From a virus, in UHGV virus genome UHGV-1351569: a DNA stretch of 64,000 nt. One strand, 5' to 3'. This document shows, piece by piece, positions 5,606 to 55,057 of this stretch. Both the position numbers and the translations under genes were made by a program. The first letter of the stretch is position 1, and each line of letters starts with the position of its first letter. The notes below the pieces were generated by a model, which was not told the DNA's origin, did not search any database, and was given only the letters and a program-made list of their open reading frames with translations.

Positions 5606-5634
5606 TTTACTTTACCACAGGGATGTGGTATAAT
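5605..5634 (+). promoter_or_regulatory. T4-type early promoter (GTTTAC ... TGGTATAAT)
   Basis: Consensus -35 GTTTAC and extended -10 TGGTATAAT with 17-bp spacing, starting right after the preceding stop codon. Confidence 0.65.
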
Positions 5635-6664: not shown

Positions 6665-6716
6665 TTTAAAGCCAAGGATGGCTCGGAGTATAAACTATTA
6701 ACCAAGTGAGAAGAAC

Positions 6717-7643
6717 ATGAAAACTCGTAAACATTATATTGATTATTTTGACAGTCTTATTACTAAACATCGTAATTATCAGATAGGACACAGAGCAGTA
6801 ATCAATAATATTCTTCGTGATTTTTTAGACTATATTGGATGGGAAAACCATATTTGTAAAGATACACAAAATGCGTATTCACATTCTCTTGGTTCTTTGC
6901 TCGAGTGGTTCAAACGTTCCCGATTACTATCTTCTGTGATAGCTGTTAATAATGTTAAAAAATTTATGTATCCAAGCTACATTGAGACTAATGTATCAAA
7001 TGCTAGTGTTGTTACATTTAATATTATTAACGACGTGAAAAGAACTTATTTAGAAGAATGGTTTTCTAAAGATAGTAAAGAAAAATTTGCCAGTGAGTTT
7101 TCACACGAATTTAATAATAATGTGAATATGCTTTTTAAGCATTCTCGTAGACTGTTTTGTCATGGCGATGACCGTACTATTAATGTAAATGTAAAAGATT
7201 GGGTTACGGCTAAATTCATTCCATCATCACAGAATGGACCATTTGAATTGTCAATTATTGTTTGTGCTCCGCATGAAATATATAAAAATATTCCATATAT
7301 GAAACCATGTGAAGCTAATAAACATAATAAAACGATTCGTTCTTTGACTTATAATCTTCGTACGTTATTGTCTAAAATGGACGTAGTTGAATCCTTTGAT
7401 GATAATACGAATTATGGTCTTTCACTATTTGAAACTAAAGTTGTTATTAAGTTAAAGGACCCTAGTAAATTTAAACCTACGCCAAAGCCCAATCGTGGGA
7501 ATGATACTATGAAAGAAGAACGCGAATATCTCAGTGCTCGTTTGATTGAAGTTGAAAAACAGATTGAAGAGCATACTAAAGTTATTAAGGCTTTAACTGC
7601 CAAAGCAAATGGTTTACGTGATGCTATTGAGGTACTGAAATGA
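6717..7643 (+). CDS. Member 4 of the coiled-coil-tailed array (308 aa)
   Basis: ORF track; C-terminal tail ...[42 protein letters not shown]. Confidence 0.65.
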   Translation: MKTRKHYIDYFDSLITKHRNYQIGHRAVINNILRDFLDYIGWENHICKDTQNAYSHSLGSLLEWFKRSRLLSSVIAVNNVKKFMYPSYIETNVSNASVVTFNIINDVKRTYLEEWFSKDSKEKFASEFSHEFNNNVNMLFKHSRRLFCHGDDRTINVNVKDWVTAKFIPSSQNGPFELSIIVCAPHEIYKNIPYMKPCEANKHNKTIRSLTYNLRTLLSKMDVVESFDDNTNYGLSLFETKVVIKLKDPSKFKPTPKPNRGNDTMKEEREYLSARLIEVEKQIEEHTKVIKALTAKANGLRDAIEVLK

Positions 7644-44206: not shown

Positions 44207-44438
44207 AGACCAGTTTTATCTGCTTCAAGATAAAGTGAGCGAAATTTATGAAATAGCTTATAGTAAAAATCGCAAAAACGTGAAAATTGAATCGGGCAAA
44301 TTAATGCTTCAATTGGAAGAAATTGAACGAGATTTGATTGCATTAGAATTCTTTTGCGGTGAAGTGAAAACTGTTACAATCAGTGATTATGTTTTAGGTG
44401 AAATTAGCCATCTTTATAAGGCGGTTATTAATGATTGA
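44178..44438 (+). CDS. Hypothetical small protein (second of three; start likely GTG 44193)
   Basis: ORF track; shares C-terminal pattern (LEEIxxDI...I.DY.LG.I) with the next ORF. Confidence 0.45.
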   Translation: MRKLFVEITKDQFYLLQDKVSEIYEIAYSKNRKNVKIESGKLMLQLEEIERDLIALEFFCGEVKTVTISDYVLGEISHLYKAVIND

Positions 44439-44673
44439 ATTAAGTTTGCAGCAGTTTAAATCTCTTATGACAAATGTTAAAGCTGTCATTCAAGAAAATT
44501 CGGGACCTGATAATGTTACTATTCGCGAAAAAGCTTTAAAGATAGTATACAGTCTTGAAGAGATACAAAAAGATATTGAATCTATGGCAAAATTTATTGA
44601 TGAGCCCATTAATAAAGTTTATATCCAAGATTATACTGTAGGTCAAATTCGCGATTTAGCGAGGAAAATTTAA
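44431..44673 (+). CDS. Hypothetical small protein (about 80 aa), third of three
   Basis: ORF track 44398..44673; ATG 44431 behind AAGGCGG. Confidence 0.5.
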   Translation: MIELSLQQFKSLMTNVKAVIQENSGPDNVTIREKALKIVYSLEEIQKDIESMAKFIDEPINKVYIQDYTVGQIRDLARKI

Positions 44674-45356
44674 TGTTTGATTTTATTATAGATTTTGAAA
44701 CAATGGGAAACGGTGAAAAGGCAGCTGTTATTGATTTGGCTGTTATTGCCTTTGACCCTAATCCAGAAGTAGTTGAAACATTTGATGAATTAGTTTCACG
44801 CGGCATTAAAATCAAGTTTGATTTAAAAAGCCAAAAAGGACATCGTCTTTTTACTAAAAGCACTATCGAATGGTGGAAAAATCAGTCTCCTGAAGCTCGA
44901 AAAAATATTGCACCATCAGATGAAGATGTAAGCACTATCGATGGTATTGCAAAATTTAATGATTACATCAATGCACATAACATTGATCCTTGGAAATCTC
45001 AAGGCTGGTGTCGTGGAATGTCGTTTGATTTTCCAATTTTAGTCGATCTCATTCGCGATATTCAACGTCTTAATGGCGTTTCTGAGAATGAGCTTGACAC
45101 ATTTAAGTTAGAACCATGTAAATTCTGGAATCAGCGTGATATTCGTACCAGAATTGAAGCACTTTTGCTTGTTCGTGATATGACCACATGTCCTCTTCCA
45201 AAGGGAACTTTAGATGGATTCGTTGCACATGATTCTATTCATGACTGTGCGAAAGACATTCTGATGATGAAGTATGCTTTGCGATATGCTATGGGTCTTG
45301 AAGATGCTCCATCAGAGGAAGAGTGCGATCCTCTGTCTCTTCCAACAAAACGATAA
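44673..45356 (+). CDS. dexA: Exonuclease A (DnaQ-like 3'-5' exonuclease) DexA, 227 aa
   Basis: DEDD-type motif FDFIIDFETMG; length and position as T4 DexA. Confidence 0.9.
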   Translation: MFDFIIDFETMGNGEKAAVIDLAVIAFDPNPEVVETFDELVSRGIKIKFDLKSQKGHRLFTKSTIEWWKNQSPEARKNIAPSDEDVSTIDGIAKFNDYINAHNIDPWKSQGWCRGMSFDFPILVDLIRDIQRLNGVSENELDTFKLEPCKFWNQRDIRTRIEALLLVRDMTTCPLPKGTLDGFVAHDSIHDCAKDILMMKYALRYAMGLEDAPSEEECDPLSLPTKR

Positions 45357-45362
45357 AAAGTT

Positions 45363-45392
45363 GTTTACTTCCTCGGTTAGTTGTGGTATTAT
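45363..45392 (+). promoter_or_regulatory. T4-type early promoter (GTTTAC ... TGGTATTAT)
   Basis: Consensus elements right after the dexA stop. Confidence 0.55.
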
Positions 45393-45419
45393 AATACCAT
45401 AGCTACTGAGGATAATAAA

Positions 45420-45917
45420 ATGAAAATTTATCGTGTTGAATCATCGTTTAGTATTCTTGATTATGAAGATGCTATAACAATACGTCGAAATCTTTGTGTT
45501 CAAATAACACCGTACAGGAGTATAATAGATTCATGGAGCGAAGAGTGGCTATTACACGTAGGTTATGACAGACCTAATTTTATGCATCATAACGATAATA
45601 AAAGAATTCCTTTACCACACGAAGATAAACTATTAGTTAAAAACGCTAATATAGTAATTAATACTAAGTTCAAGAAAGATTATGTTGGAGTAGAATATCA
45701 TATTCCAGGATGGTTTATAGCTCTTTATCATTTTGCTTTCGCTAGTGAATATGATATGATGAGATGGTTCACACGAGAAGAGCGGGAAGAATTATCTTCT
45801 AAAGGATTTTATCTCGCTGTATACGAAGTTCCTGAAGATGAAGTTATCATTGGCGGGCACCAAGTAATGTTCCGCAAATCGCATGCTGAACTCATAGATT
45901 TTATTGAAATGAGATAA
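45420..45917 (+). CDS. Hypothetical protein (about 165 aa)
   Basis: ORF track 45381..45917; ATG 45420 behind GAGGATAATAAA. Confidence 0.55.
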   Translation: MKIYRVESSFSILDYEDAITIRRNLCVQITPYRSIIDSWSEEWLLHVGYDRPNFMHHNDNKRIPLPHEDKLLVKNANIVINTKFKKDYVGVEYHIPGWFIALYHFAFASEYDMMRWFTREEREELSSKGFYLAVYEVPEDEVIIGGHQVMFRKSHAELIDFIEMR

Positions 45918-45919
45918 TT

Positions 45920-46459
45920 ATGAAATTTAATTATAATCCTGAATACACACCAAATCCGGTAGCTAAACTGATTGATTTTGATGTTGTAAGCACTTATGTA
46001 TGCCCTGTTAAACCACTGGAAATTAAGGAACCTACTATGACTACCGCTATTGAAATCGGCAAAATCTACAAACTGGCTGAAACTGAAATTAAAACTACTG
46101 AACTAAATTTGGGTTATAAAGCATTGACTAATGTTTTTGGTGAAGGCGAGTTTGTGGTTAAAAGCTTTTCAAAAAGTAACTGGCATGATAAGAATAAAGC
46201 TTACGTGATTCGAGTGCACCGTTTAGATAATGATGAAGTAATTAAAACTATAGTTTTTGAAGCAGAGTTCATCCTCTTTCAAGAATGCGATCCTACTGAC
46301 CTTCTAACTCGTGCGGTAGCTATCAAGACTCCATTTATTTCGGTCTGTGGTTGGGTAACAGACCAATGGATTGAAGATGGTGTTGAACTTCTGAACGTTG
46401 TTCATGCAGGTGATTTTAGTGTAGTACCTCGTAGTGCGGTGGTAGCTATTTTAAATTAA
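45920..46459 (+). CDS. Hypothetical protein, 179 aa; paralog of the next gene
   Basis: Shares C-terminal block CGW(V)TDQW(I)EDGVEL(L)NVV with 46536..47024. Confidence 0.6.
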   Translation: MKFNYNPEYTPNPVAKLIDFDVVSTYVCPVKPLEIKEPTMTTAIEIGKIYKLAETEIKTTELNLGYKALTNVFGEGEFVVKSFSKSNWHDKNKAYVIRVHRLDNDEVIKTIVFEAEFILFQECDPTDLLTRAVAIKTPFISVCGWVTDQWIEDGVELLNVVHAGDFSVVPRSAVVAILN

Positions 46460-46462
46460 TAG

Positions 46463-46497
46463 TTTACAAACTCTTGGGACCAGAGTATAATGGTCCC
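46463..46497 (+). promoter_or_regulatory. T4-type early promoter (GTTTAC ... TATAAT) with the -10 embedded in an inverted repeat GGGACC/GGTCCC
   Basis: GTTTACA, 17-bp spacer, TATAAT; 6-bp inverted repeat flanks the -10. Confidence 0.5.
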
Positions 46498-46535
46498 GTG
46501 GAGTATAAAATCTTTTTAACAAGTGAGAGATAACT

Positions 46536-47024
46536 ATGATTATTAATATTGGTGAAATTGCTCGTGTATCTGATAAATCCCGTTCTAAAGCAGCAGGAAA
46601 ATTGGTTGAAATTGTAAGCATTCAGCTTAAACACGGTGTTAAAGATGAAGATTCTGAAGTAAAAGTGCGTATCATTCCTAAAGATGGAAAGTCTAAACCT
46701 CAGTTTGGCTATGTTCGTGCGAAATTTCTTGAGTCTGCGTTTTTGAAAGCTGTTCCTGCTAAAGGAATTAAAACGATTGATACTTCGCATGTAGGTGTAG
46801 ACTTTAAGTGGAAACTCGGTCAATCTATTAAGTTCATTGCTCCTTGTGAATTTAAATTCATCCCAGATGATGGAAAGGCTGTTTATACTCGTGCTATGTG
46901 TGGATACATTACCGATCAATGGGTAGAAGACGGTGTTAAGTTGTACAACGTGGTATTTTTAGGAACATACAAAGTCATTCCTGAAAGTTGGATTAAACAC
47001 TATAGAAATGCGCTCTATGCATAA
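46536..47024 (+). CDS. Hypothetical protein, 162 aa (by length/position possibly MotB-like)
   Basis: ORF track; paralogous C-terminal block CGYITDQWVEDGVKLYNVV. Confidence 0.6.
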   Translation: MIINIGEIARVSDKSRSKAAGKLVEIVSIQLKHGVKDEDSEVKVRIIPKDGKSKPQFGYVRAKFLESAFLKAVPAKGIKTIDTSHVGVDFKWKLGQSIKFIAPCEFKFIPDDGKAVYTRAMCGYITDQWVEDGVKLYNVVFLGTYKVIPESWIKHYRNALYA

Positions 47025-47048
47025 AATTTAAAATTTTTTCATAAAACT

Positions 47049-47078
47049 ATATACATCAGTAGTTGATTATGGTACTAT
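47049..47078 (+). promoter_or_regulatory. Early promoter, cassette copy G (degenerate -35, TGGTACTAT)
   Basis: Same -10/leader module as copies A and F. Confidence 0.45.
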
Positions 47079-47121
47079 ATCAATATCAACTACTGATACA
47101 GAAAACAACTTGGAGAATAAA

Positions 47122-47391
47122 ATGGAAAACTTAATTATCATCGAACAATCTTTCAACGATTATGGTATGGCTTACGGTTATCGTGCGATAATGGAAGATT
47201 CTCGTGGATGTGTTATCGATATTGCTGAATGTAAAGATTTACTGCAGCTTTTGAAGATTGTTCGCAAAAATTGGGATTGTGAAAACATTAAAGTTCGTGT
47301 TGTAACGGAAGAAGAAACTATTTTTCATGATGTAAAATTTGCCAAAGGTGCTGCTACTCTTCTGAAACGCATCGCTCCACTGTTCAATTAA
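47122..47391 (+). CDS. Hypothetical protein (about 89 aa)
   Basis: ORF track 47110..47391; ATG 47122 behind the shared TGGAGAATAAA leader. Confidence 0.55.
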   Translation: MENLIIIEQSFNDYGMAYGYRAIMEDSRGCVIDIAECKDLLQLLKIVRKNWDCENIKVRVVTEEETIFHDVKFAKGAATLLKRIAPLFN

Positions 47392-47404: not shown

Positions 47405-47620
47405 ATGAAACGTAAAATTGTTCAGAATTGCACTAATGACGAATTTGAAGATGTATTATTCGATCCAGATTTGGTAGTAGTTCAAAAGGAACACACTGCT
47501 AAGTTTACTCACTTGACTTCGGTTTATGTGTATGAAAAGGTTGGTGATAAACAACCAATTTACGGTGTATTCCGTGAAATCACCGAAGACGGTACAACTT
47601 ACTGGAAGGAAATTTATTAA
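47405..47620 (+). CDS. Hypothetical protein, 71 aa
   Basis: ORF track; TGAGGAAATTGTA RBS. Confidence 0.5.
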
Positions 47621-48039
47621 TGGCTATTAAATTTGAAGTTAATAAATGGTATCAATTTAAAAATAAACAAGCTCAAGAAAATTTTATTAAAGACCATACT
47701 GATAACGGAATCTATGCGCGGCGTTTAGGTATGGAACCTTTTAAAATTTTAGATGTTGACTATTACGGGCGTCCTACTAAAATTGTGACATCTACTGGCA
47801 TAGTTGGATATTCATCACGAGGTACAGTCATTGACGAAAACTTTATCTGGCTTTGTACTAACGAAGCTGGGTTCTTTGATGAAGTGGAAAATCCATACCA
47901 AGCAGCTGAAGAGCAAGAGCAGGAAGAGCAAGAACAAATAGAAGATTTCACAGAATTTCCTGCCATGAAAGTTACTATTGAAAATAATGAACAGGCATGG
48001 TCCTTGTATCAGATGTTGAAAGCACACTTTAAGGAATAA
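47620..48039 (+). CDS. Hypothetical protein, 139 aa, with acidic [10 protein letters not shown] stretch
   Basis: ORF track; ATG overlaps the upstream TAA. Confidence 0.55.
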
Positions 48040-48220: not shown

Positions 48221-48505
48221 ATGTTTAAAATCGGTAAGAAATATCGCATTCGCGAAGGTGAAGAAAAGAAATATCTATCTTCTGCTATTTATAGGAATGG
48301 TTCTATTAATGCCGTAATATCTACAAGCGAATTTATCGTTGAAGATATGAAAGGTCATAACGTTACAATGATTAGTACAGCAACTAGCAGAAATGCTGGA
48401 AAAATTCTTCACAGTCTTCGGAGTGAAGTTTTAATTTATGATGAAGAATTTGACTTCTTCGAAGAAGTTCCCGAAGATTTTGATTTGAATGTACTATCAC
48501 TATGA
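48221..48505 (+). CDS. Hypothetical protein, 94 aa
   Basis: ORF track. Confidence 0.5.
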   Translation: MFKIGKKYRIREGEEKKYLSSAIYRNGSINAVISTSEFIVEDMKGHNVTMISTATSRNAGKILHSLRSEVLIYDEEFDFFEEVPEDFDLNVLSL

Positions 48506-50746: not shown

Positions 50747-50775
50747 TTTACTTTACCACAAGGATGTGGTATAAT
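50746..50775 (+). promoter_or_regulatory. T4-type early promoter (GTTTAC ... TGGTATAAT)
   Basis: Near-identical to the promoter at 5605. Confidence 0.6.
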
Positions 50776-55027: not shown

Positions 55028-55057
55028 GTTTACATACCACAAGGACTGTGGTACTAT
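55028..55057 (+). promoter_or_regulatory. T4-type early promoter, cassette copy F
   Basis: GTTTACA ... TGGTACTAT with the same leader as copy A. Confidence 0.6.

Follow-up and report, generated by a model that had tools for sequence, protein, structure and literature searches.

The locus examined here raises two questions, namely how two neighbouring early genes of a T4-like phage are related to one another and what is done by an inverted repeat that overlaps the promoter lying between them. The DNA analysed (hereafter the window) is a 64 kb stretch of a Tequatrovirus genome which is 97.6% identical at the DNA level to Shigella phage CM8 and was matched by 645 phage records. The segment of interest reads motB.2, motB.1 and motB, keeping the T4 gene order dexA, motB.2, motB.1, motB, and both locus and gene order are as described for T4 MotB and MotB.1 (Patterson-West et al. 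2018, PMC6070864; Viruses 2021 13:84, PMC7827196; Kim et al. 2025, PMC12152347). Open reading frames of 179 and 162 amino acids stand on either side of the promoter on the + strand (Table 1). For motB.2, the mechanically called open reading frame begins at a TTG (45381) that falls within a promoter, and for this reason ATG 45420 is preferred as the likely start codon.

Concerning the proteins, the initial annotation had suggested that one of the two might be MotB, and this is borne out for the downstream gene, whose product matches PF17613 along its full length (358.7 bits for a gathering cut-off of 25, profile positions 1-162 of 162, E 4e-108) and is about 93% identical to T4 MotB. MotB has two domains, an N-terminal KOW/SH3-like barrel and a C-terminal beta domain, and in T4 it is an early protein that binds DNA tightly and non-specifically and co-purifies with H-NS (PMC6070864; PMC7827196). 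The upstream product is a partial member of the same family, aligned with profile positions 120-153 only at 34.2 bits. The conserved C-terminal block on which a paralogous pair had been proposed is present in both proteins as CGWVTDQWIEDGVELLNVV and CGYITDQWVEDGVKLYNVV, and the similarity is significant by BLASTP (18/32 identical, E 2e-12) as well as by hhalign of the MotB.1 variant against MotB (37 columns, probability 98.5%, E 1.8e-15). Outside this block, neither BLASTP nor profile-profile comparison aligned the two proteins, so the similar upstream segments that had also been claimed find no support. The pair is related through the common block but not along the whole protein, and whole-protein paralogy is ruled out by the restriction of the hhalign alignment to 37 columns. 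Judged from these alignments, the relation is that of a common C-terminal module, some 37 to 55 residues long, carried on unrelated N-terminal domains. This relationship has already been published for T4 itself, where MotB and MotB.1 were described as having a common C-terminal domain and differing N-terminal domains, probably through duplication, with both genes found in 40 other phages (PMC7827196, 2021).

The upstream gene is a MotB.1 variant in which the small MotB-type C-terminal beta module is joined to a different, exchangeable N-terminal module. Its C-terminal domain is closer to T4 MotB.1 than to MotB, with hhalign aligning the last 78 residues only, from residue 103, to T4 MotB.1 (78 columns, E 1.4e-34). 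DNA homology to T4 ends at 45905 and restarts at 46347, with none between 45920 and 46346, and in terms of DNA the gene's N-terminal portion is a cassette swapped relative to T4. The right junction of this swap lies inside the coding block, at 46347, and not at the promoter cassette, which means that not every shuffle here runs through the cassette. Published models of the T4 MotB.1 N-terminal domain are LSm-like and place it in a family with GoF and Frd.2. The N-terminal domain of the protein in the window differs in sequence from that of T4, and hhalign found no similarity between this protein and either the T4 MotB.1 N-terminal domain or GoF. A weak profile match was obtained between the N-terminal module and a free-standing open reading frame of 94 amino acids at 48221-48505 (hhalign, 75 columns, probability 87.8%, E 3.3e-6), and the AF2 model of the whole variant was too poor for a fold search (pLDDT 53). 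Phage PST carries a counterpart of 180 amino acids annotated as MotB.1, and a motB.1-type gene stands directly upstream of motB in the related loci whose upstream flank is included. The variant probably belongs to the group with 'another distinct NTD' (PMC7827196).

Table 1. Features of the motB.2-motB.1-motB segment, with positions in the window.
Feature	Position	Strand	Basis or remark
motB.2 early-type promoter, TTTACT-17-TATTAT (45364-45392), with 12-bp hairpin round the -10 (45378-45405)	45364-45405	+	Promoter and hairpin scans
motB.2-like gene	45420-45917	+	phrog_1106, function not assigned; T4 gene order
motB.1-type gene, 179 aa	45920-46459	+	phrog_2333, E 4.6e-81; PF17613 at residues 141-174 only
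N-terminal module of MotB.1 variant, residues 44-123	46049-46288	+	Without T4 DNA match; resembles ORF 48221-48505
Shared C-terminal block in MotB.1, residues 141-177, predicted beta strands	46340-46450	+	BLASTP, hhalign, AF2
motB early-type promoter: -35 (G)TTTACA (46463-46468), 17-bp spacer, -10 TATAAT (46486-46491)	46463-46491	+	11/12 consensus
Extended RNA stem, spacer ACUCU predicted to pair with downstream GGAGU	46470-46504	+	-19.7 kcal/mol, z -5.3
Core hairpin GGGACCA-GAGTATAA-TGGTCCC	46476-46497	+	Arms 46476-46482 and 46491-46497; covariation
Candidate RegB site GGAGTATAAAA	46500-46510	+	10/11 match to strong consensus GGAGRAYARAA
motB Shine-Dalgarno GAGAGA	46525-46530	+	Read from sequence; conserved in all loci
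motB, 162 aa	46536-47024	+	Pfam PF17613
Shared C-terminal block in MotB, residues 119-155, last four strands of C-terminal beta domain	46890-47000	+	BLASTP, hhalign

The promoter proposed between the two genes, GTTTACA followed after a 17-bp spacer by TATAAT, is confirmed as the best sigma-70-type match among the 4.2 kb scanned (11/12), and at consensus level the intergenic element reads as an early-type promoter. An AT-rich stretch, TATTTTAAATTAATA, lies upstream of it, the promoter and inverted repeat are identical in sequence in T4, and transcription of motB is predicted to start at about 46498-46500. In the literature searched, neither a mapped T4 start site nor a terminator at motB was found. 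Two further promoter candidates were rejected, namely a late promoter at TATAAAAT (46504-46511), which does not match TATAAATA and is not kept by the other clades, and another sigma-70 promoter with TATAAA at 46504 as its -10, which has no -35 at the proper distance.

The inverted repeat, described in the initial annotation as 6 bp long and enclosing the -10, is real and one base longer, with a 7-bp core and an 8-nt loop, which holds only the TATAA of the -10; the last T of the hexamer opens the 3' arm. Pairing of the spacer with sequence downstream would extend the stem to 13 bp. This lower stem is likewise predicted in two other clades, and the RNA folds of the three clades have energies between -17 and -20 kcal/mol and z-scores between -4 and -6, the changes in the lower-stem pairing being one-sided only. 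Any start site that this -10 could serve falls downstream of the 5' arm, which occupies -16 to -10, and consequently the hairpin can form only in read-through RNA (or single-stranded DNA). A hairpin in the 5' leader of the motB mRNA, as had also been suggested, is ruled out by this geometry. A search of 45200-47300 against Rfam, on both strands and with E up to 1, gave no match.

Comparison of about 35 related loci, comprising 11 distinct variants from roughly three clades of related sequences, so that independent covariation events are few, showed that all 87 of the 87 stem cells are paired and that five of the eight stem pairs are altered on both sides. Controls slid along the sequence pair at 32-46%, compared with the 100% observed, and the observed covariation score was reached by none of 500 shuffles. 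By clade, the arms read GGGACCA/TGGTCCC, GGGGTCA/TGACCCC and GAGAGCCA/TGGCTCTC. In a third clade the spacer holds another hairpin, of 6 bp, that shows compensatory change of its own (CATCCA/TGGATG as against CAACCA/TGGTTG), and in one variant of this clade (L029) the loop is closed by an A·C. The imperfect pairs, about eight in number, are every one G·T (G·U) on the + strand, with no A·C among them. The repeat is thus retained in relatives with compensatory changes, which favours function; on this comparative evidence the hairpin is under selection and is non-random because of the covariation, and the restriction of imperfect pairs to G·U points to the sense strand, so that the selected structure most likely acts in RNA. 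G·T mismatches are tolerated in single-stranded DNA too, and a hairpin in + strand DNA is compatible with the same pattern.

Read-through RNA carrying the hairpin would need a source upstream, and the motB.2 promoter is the likely one. There, a hairpin again surrounds the -10, and GGATAATAAAATG, which comprises the motB.2 Shine-Dalgarno and start codon, then follows. The relatives vary too little at this second hairpin for a covariation signal, and the annotation of phage ASO78A places a T4 early promoter with an overlapping terminator at the equivalent site. More widely, 5 of the 17 strict early-promoter matches in the window have a hairpin with a stem of 7 bp or longer between -35 and +12, as opposed to a background of 3.2% (p 1.5e-4).

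The motB hairpin is itself annotated as a rho-independent terminator in GenBank MZ726795 (phage ASO78A; WebGeSTer, TransTermHP). It resembles such terminators in being GC-rich, intergenic and placed after a stop codon, but differs in having no U-run immediately after the stem, which is followed by GUGGAGUAUAAAAUCUUUUU; TCTTTTT starts 13 nt past the core stem. A consensus terminator scan did not call the hairpin, which together with the missing U-tract next to the stem led us to reject a canonical intrinsic terminator. Since, in addition, the other clades do not keep the T-run seen in the T4-type sequence, efficient intrinsic termination at the hairpin is doubtful.

A precedent is offered by promoter-early stem-loops (PeSLs), which combine a promoter, a terminator or attenuator and a recombination joint (Arbiol et al. 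2010, PMC2839356; Comeau et al. 2014, PMC4122927), and for which the authors report stem-loops that overlap the -10, the occurrence of G-T pairs, activity as a terminator and recombination taking place at the cassette (PMC2839356; PMC4122927). The element class and its proposed roles are thus already published. The present site shares with them an AT-rich tract and an early promoter fitting, as a consensus match only, the PST/T4 sequence TTTACW-N17-TAYWAT, a stem-loop with G-T pairs overlapping the -10 (one of five published positions), a Shine-Dalgarno and start codon at the 3' end, and a position in a plastic early region beside indels and replacements, the neighbouring open reading frame 47110-47391, for instance, being present or absent depending on the relative. 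It differs in that PST/T4 stem-loops were described just upstream of the promoter, whereas here the stem-loop lies round the -10, as in phi1/RB49, and in that the GGAG/A-rich segment of the cassette is not the working Shine-Dalgarno, a second one, GAGAGA, standing 25 nt further on. From these sequence features, the intergenic element is rather probably a composite PeSL-type cassette made up of AT-rich tract, sigma-70-type promoter, -10 stem-loop and GGAG/A-rich leader.

Overall, a motB.2-motB.1-motB segment with a PeSL-type hairpin cassette between motB.1 and motB is the best explanation, at a probability of roughly 0.6. Under this reading, the motB mRNA would start at the motB promoter, just 3' of the hairpin, and the hairpin would form only in sense RNA coming from the upstream promoter at 45364. 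It would most likely attenuate read-through or stabilise the 3' end of the motB.2-motB.1 message, and in doing so could insulate the two transcription units. The conserved cassette may also double as a homologous joint for the exchange of neighbouring gene modules. In favour of such a joint, one and the same cassette is found behind three upstream sequences that differ from one another, the junction falling at the -35, in one related locus (L034) it is attached to an RB51-type motB with the crossover within GGAGTATAAA|TC, and the leader GGAGTATAAA..TAAC.AAGTGAGA also stands ahead of an unrelated gene at 6717.

It has to be considered whether the stem-loop is chiefly a recombination signal, a structure or homology patch for PeSL crossover or mini-circles with little role in expression. 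Mosaic junctions do lie at the cassette, as read from the aligned relatives, both at its -35 edge and just 3' of the hairpin. The leader cassette is present a second time, at 6685. Furthermore, a crossover was mapped by Arbiol et al. to the loop of a PeSL (PMC2839356). However, exchange by homology requires conservation and not complementarity, so the compensatory changes and the G·T-only asymmetry would go unexplained, and the N-terminal swap in motB.1 has one of its junctions in coding sequence. A signal mainly for recombination is unlikely for these reasons, although it fares best among the alternatives.

Less probable still is a switch set by promoter of origin, in which read-through RNA would hide a GGAG RegB site and RNA from the motB promoter would expose it, as GGAGUAUAAAA at +3 to +6. 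RegB with S1 would then cut the motB-promoter RNA, the 5' triphosphate would be replaced by a 5' hydroxyl and the cut RNA would decay fast through PNK and RNase G/E; in read-through RNA, the full 13-bp stem would also cap the motB.2-motB.1 message. The strong RegB cleavage consensus is GG*AGRAYARAA, and RNA secondary structure protects from RegB (PMC3014915). GGAG(A/T)ATAAA, a 10/11 match, is conserved in most relatives, and GGAGAATAAAC in relatives also scores 10/11. By prediction, the candidate is base-paired when the RNA is read through and single-stranded when it starts at the motB promoter. Folds predicted for three clades have the GGAG pairing with the spacer, and in each of these clades it would occupy +3 to +7 of the transcript. 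The site resembles RegB targets in its consensus match and its place in an intergenic region of early genes, but differs in lying outside the motB translation initiation region and in its predicted pairing in read-through RNA. Against the switch, the clade with the spacer hairpin has its GGAG upstream of the -10, two loci (L010 and L017) carry GGAT and a third (L030) GGAA, and the changes in the lower stem are one-sided. The motif, enriched in the window (9 matches, 3.2 expected), is moreover common as the Shine-Dalgarno region of early cassettes, and GGAGTATAAAA looks like a possible leftover of such a region. Were the switch real, one DNA element would yield two classes of motB mRNA with differing lifetimes.

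The repeat could also be pictured as a DNA operator at which a dimeric protein shuts off or modulates the early promoter. A palindrome centred on the -10 occupies a classic repressor position, and the shut-off of T4 early promoters is incompletely understood (PMC3014915). Yet the half-sites vary between clades while complementarity stays, the asymmetric G·T variants spoil the palindrome on one strand only, the arm sequences at other early promoters are unrelated and in the third clade another hairpin sits in the spacer, all of which makes an operator very improbable. Finally, a functionless chance feature of a GC-rich spacer and discriminator would draw on the fact that, taken alone, so good a repeat is not rare (over its 64 kb, the + strand of the window has 152 hairpins with stems of 7 bp or more, about 1 per 420 nt), but it can practically be dismissed in view of the complete pairing, the five two-sided pairs, the clearly lower slid and shuffled controls and the enrichment of hairpins at early promoters.

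To summarize, the gene pair, its promoter and the hairpin are already known and ordinary for such phages, and what is added here is modest, consisting of comparative evidence that compensatory change keeps the hairpin and that its wobbles occur on the sense strand only. Compensatory change and sense-strand wobbles together would indicate a role at the RNA level in read-through transcripts, and not as a DNA operator or a 5' leader. The cassette is also seen as a joint between exchangeable gene modules. These observations may be of use in annotating transcription units and in planning deletions within the early, non-essential region of therapeutic phages of the T4 type.

The 2 kb around the motB promoter match 645 phage records, almost all from Tequatrovirus and related T4-like phages (97.6% identity in Shigella phage CM8), and annotated relatives have the gene order dexA, motB.2, motB.1, motB, (optional ORF), cef, goF. 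The 162-aa ORF matches Pfam PF17613 over its full length (E 4.2e-108) with ~93% identity to T4 MotB, which identifies it as MotB and confirms what the initial annotation had proposed for one member of the pair. In the 179-aa ORF upstream, the PF17613 match is limited to residues 141-174; the ORF otherwise belongs to phrog_2333. T4 MotB.1 aligns with its last 78 residues (E 1.4e-34), phage PST has a 180-aa counterpart named MotB.1, and a MotB.1-type C-terminal domain lies directly 5' of motB in related loci having upstream flank; by these alignments the protein is a MotB.1.

Features of the motB region and related elements (+ strand; for dexA, the optional ORF, cef and goF position only)
Feature	Position	Detail
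Second leader cassette	6669-6719	GAGCCA-AGGA-TGGCTC
Unrelated 308-aa gene	6717-7643
TGTGGTA-hairpin promoters	5606-5634, 50747-50775, 55029-55057	early-type
dexA	44673-45356
Early-type promoter before motB.2	45364-45392	own 12-bp hairpin around -10
motB.2-like	45420-45917
MotB.1 variant	45920-46459	179 aa
IDFDVVSTYVCPVKPLE motif	45968-46030	residues 17-37
motB promoter (predicted)	46463-46491	TTTACA-17-TATAAT
Hairpin 5' arm	46476-46482	GGGACCA
Hairpin 3' arm	46491-46497	TGGTCCC
motB transcript start (predicted)	~46498-46500	~7 nt after -10
U-rich AUCUUUU pairing region (predicted)	46510-46531
motB	46536-47024	162 aa
Promoter-like site	47050-47124	TATACA-17-TACTAT
Perfect 13-bp repeat	47056-47098	ATCAGTAGTTGAT/ATCAACTACTGAT
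Optional ORF	47110-47391
ORF served by TATACA site	47122-47391
cef	47405-47620
goF	47620-48039
ORF downstream of 39.2	48221-48505	94 aa, free-standing

BLASTP aligned the pair over one stretch of 32 residues (identity 56%, E 2e-12) with no similarity beyond it, profile-profile comparison of the family alignments gave 37 columns only (residues 141-177 against MotB 119-155; probability 98.5%, E 1.8e-15), and PHROG profiles lengthen the common C-terminal region to ~54-74 residues. The C-terminal block from which a duplication had been read thus holds up as significant similarity, whereas the similar upstream segments also described are not supported. This relationship is already in the literature: T4 MotB and MotB.1 have a conserved C-terminal domain in common and different N-terminal domains, duplication of either gene has been suggested as the origin of the other, and 102 homologues were sorted by distinct N-terminal domains, with both genes in 40 other phages (Viruses 2021, PMC7827196). 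A paralogous duplication beside motB in RB69 had been noted earlier (Nolan et al., 2006). Using tblastn, the shared block was found at 1687 places in 781 phage records, each genome holding one to three copies. In L003 (RB51), L016, L019, L020, L029 and L031-L035 of the collected loci, motB is followed, after only TAAGGAATTATTATG, by a third gene of the family, which encodes a MotB-like protein of 139 aa and has neither promoter nor hairpin of its own. Furthermore, motB.1 encodes 119 aa in the T4 reference (L021, NC_000866; ...TDQWIGRWR*) versus 143 aa in a resequenced T4 clone (L002, MZ375356); a one-base frame difference within the conserved block leaves the reference protein without most of the shared module.

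Homology between T4 DNA and the window covers 44301-45905, breaks off there and resumes at 46347, and the N-terminal domain of the 179-aa MotB.1 is unlike that of T4 MotB.1 in sequence. Residues 44-124 of the 179-aa protein align by hhalign with the free-standing ORF that lies downstream of 39.2 (E 3.3e-6 and probability 87.8% over 75 columns), and the N-terminal module seems to exist both alone and fused. MotB.1 variants of ~250 aa occur in L009, L015, L018 and L028, and some MotB.1 proteins carry the module in two tandem copies (pairwise E 4e-5 within L009). An additional N-terminal segment of ~80 aa in L013 and L014 has no detectable similarity to it. The short N-terminal motif IDFDVVSTYVCPVKPLE recurs (DMDLVSMYVAPVEKIE, DMDIACMYGTLVKPIE) as an interdomain linker insert in T4-type MotB.1 of other phages (L008, L003).

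The motB promoter is predicted by its consensus match (11/12), the top sigma-70-type match in 4.2 kb scanned, and fits TTTACW-N17-TAYWAT, which Comeau et al. (PMC4122927) cite as the early-promoter form of PST/T4. The 8-nt loop of the inverted repeat (GAGTATAA) contains TATAA, the first five bases of the -10 hexamer, and T4 has identical sequence throughout the motB.1-motB intergenic region. With 152 hairpins of comparable size on the + strand of the window, such structures are not rare by themselves, and conservation was therefore used as the test. Among ~35 related loci gathered for the motB upstream region there are three promoter types, with a stem-loop in each. The T4-type stem varies as GGGATCA/TGGTCCT, GGGGCCA/TGGTCCC, GGGGTCA/TGACCCC and GGGGTCG/TGGCCCC; the second-clade stem GAGAGCCA/TGGCTCTC also occurs as GAGGGCCA, as GAGAGCTA and with a T-ending 3' arm (TGGCTCTT), and RB51 has lost one base of it. 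In the third clade a 6-bp spacer stem, CATCCA-AGGA-TGGATG, with the compensatory variant CAACCA/TGGTTG, replaces the -10-wrapping hairpin. Across 11 distinct -10-wrapping variants, standard pairs fill 87/87 cells, both sides have changed in 5/8 pairs, a covariation score as high as observed arose in 0/500 shuffles, and pairing falls to 32-46% when the partner is slid by 1-3 columns. These results indicate that the repeat is under selection for complementarity; its retention with compensatory changes, in relatives checked for its loss, favours function.

Which strand carries the structure is suggested by the imperfect pairs. Transitions from a Watson-Crick pair yield G·T and A·C types equally often, yet all of the ~8 cases, read on the + strand, are G·T or T·G, which would be C·A mismatches on the opposite strand, and none is A·C (roughly p 0.004 by our own estimate, if events are independent). 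This asymmetry points to selection on the sense strand. For each of the three -10-wrapping sequence types, RNA folds of the element reach -17 to -20 kcal/mol (z-scores between -4 and -6), and the antisense fold is weaker at -15.5 kcal/mol. A lower stem is predicted as well, in which spacer CUCU (second clade: CUUU) pairs with GGAG downstream, and the U-rich AUCUUUU is predicted to pair with the motB Shine-Dalgarno GAGAGAU. Given the predicted start, the 5' arm would not be transcribed from the motB promoter; this geometry excludes the proposed hairpin at the transcript 5' end, and both arms are present only in RNA arriving from upstream, the closest source being the early-type promoter before motB.2.

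In its layout this architecture is a published promoter-early stem-loop (PeSL). In the intergenic cassettes of phi1/RB49, a strong sigma-70-like promoter is accompanied by an AT-rich tract, a Shine-Dalgarno with start codon and a stem-loop that mostly lies between -35 and -10 or over -10 (G-T pairs marked); one stem-loop cut reporter expression as strongly as the rrnB T1 terminator, and crossovers within the cassette gave indels and mini-circles (Arbiol et al., 2010, PMC2839356). The class was later extended to PST/T4 (Comeau et al., 2014, PMC4122927). Of the 17 strict early-promoter matches in the window, 5 hold a hairpin of 7 bp or more between -35 and +12, versus 3.2% of random positions (p 1.5e-4). 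The TATACA site is an additional case: its -10 lies within the 17-nt loop of the 13-bp repeat, with a Shine-Dalgarno region exactly matching the RegB consensus downstream (GGAGAATAAAATG); the ORF it serves is missing from T4 and several relatives. Three other early-type promoters have the spacer hairpin TACCACA-(4-5 nt)-TGTGGTA, its 3' arm extending into the extended -10, and the promoters at 1185 and 55029 have a near-identical leader, ACTATCAACTGATACGGATTTGGAGAATAAAATG. The GenBank record of phage ASO78A (MZ726795) annotates the motB hairpin as a rho-independent terminator and labels its motB.2 promoter a T4 early promoter with an overlapping terminator. Classic termination at motB is doubtful because no U-tract follows the stem and a nearby T-run is not conserved in relatives.

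In the view that we hold most likely, at a probability of about 0.6, motB mRNA would start at this promoter, the hairpin in sense read-through RNA would act as attenuator or 3'-end stabiliser and set the motB.2-motB.1 unit apart from motB, and the conserved cassette would in addition provide the homology at which modules are exchanged. The T4-type cassette lies downstream of three different sequences (...VVAILN*, ...VINVRVS*, and a deletion variant without motB.2 and motB.1), similarity beginning at -35, and in L034 an RB51-type motB follows a T4-type cassette, with the changeover within GGAGTATAAA|TC. The window has two copies of the leader GGAGTATAAA..TAAC.AAGTGAGA, one ahead of motB and the other ahead of the unrelated gene at 6717, each with a hairpin directly 5'; none is expected by chance. 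The second cassette continues into GGAGTATAAACTATTAACCAAGTGAGA and ATG, and its hairpin is similar to the one found in the spacer of the third motB promoter type. The deletion variant (L023, metagenome contig Ga0079226_10038823, 1160-1240) has naturally lost window 45453-46450, an 11-codon motB.2 stub being joined 12 nt upstream of the motB -35, and this places two promoter-hairpin cassettes ~90 nt apart. That the hairpin is mainly recombinational is a minor possibility. The right junction of the MotB.1 N-terminal swap, inside the conserved coding block at 46347, speaks against a universal joint role.

The sequence that directly follows the hairpin, GGAGTATAAAA (other clades: GGAGAATAAAC), agrees at 10/11 positions with the strong RegB consensus GGAGRAYARAA given in PMC3014915, according to which secondary structure also protects against this endoribonuclease. 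The window has 9 matches to this motif class versus 3.2 expected, five of them ~18-25 nt downstream of an early -10; four of these five are Shine-Dalgarno regions directly before ATG, the exception being the motB copy, which is followed by ATC, with the working Shine-Dalgarno GAGAGA 25 nt further on. The motB element may be a cassette leftover, a RegB site, or both. Though attractive, a RegB switch set by the promoter of origin is unlikely, as some relatives have not retained GGAG and changes in the lower stem are one-sided only. An inverted repeat serving as protein operator is very improbable, its half-sites changing between relatives and its wobble pairs being strand-asymmetric, and a chance repeat is scarcely credible beside the covariation.

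The initial annotation was largely correct overall. The protein pair and the promoter-hairpin were both already described for T4 and relatives, and what the present analysis adds for the motB promoter hairpin is its covariation and the evidence pointing to the sense strand.
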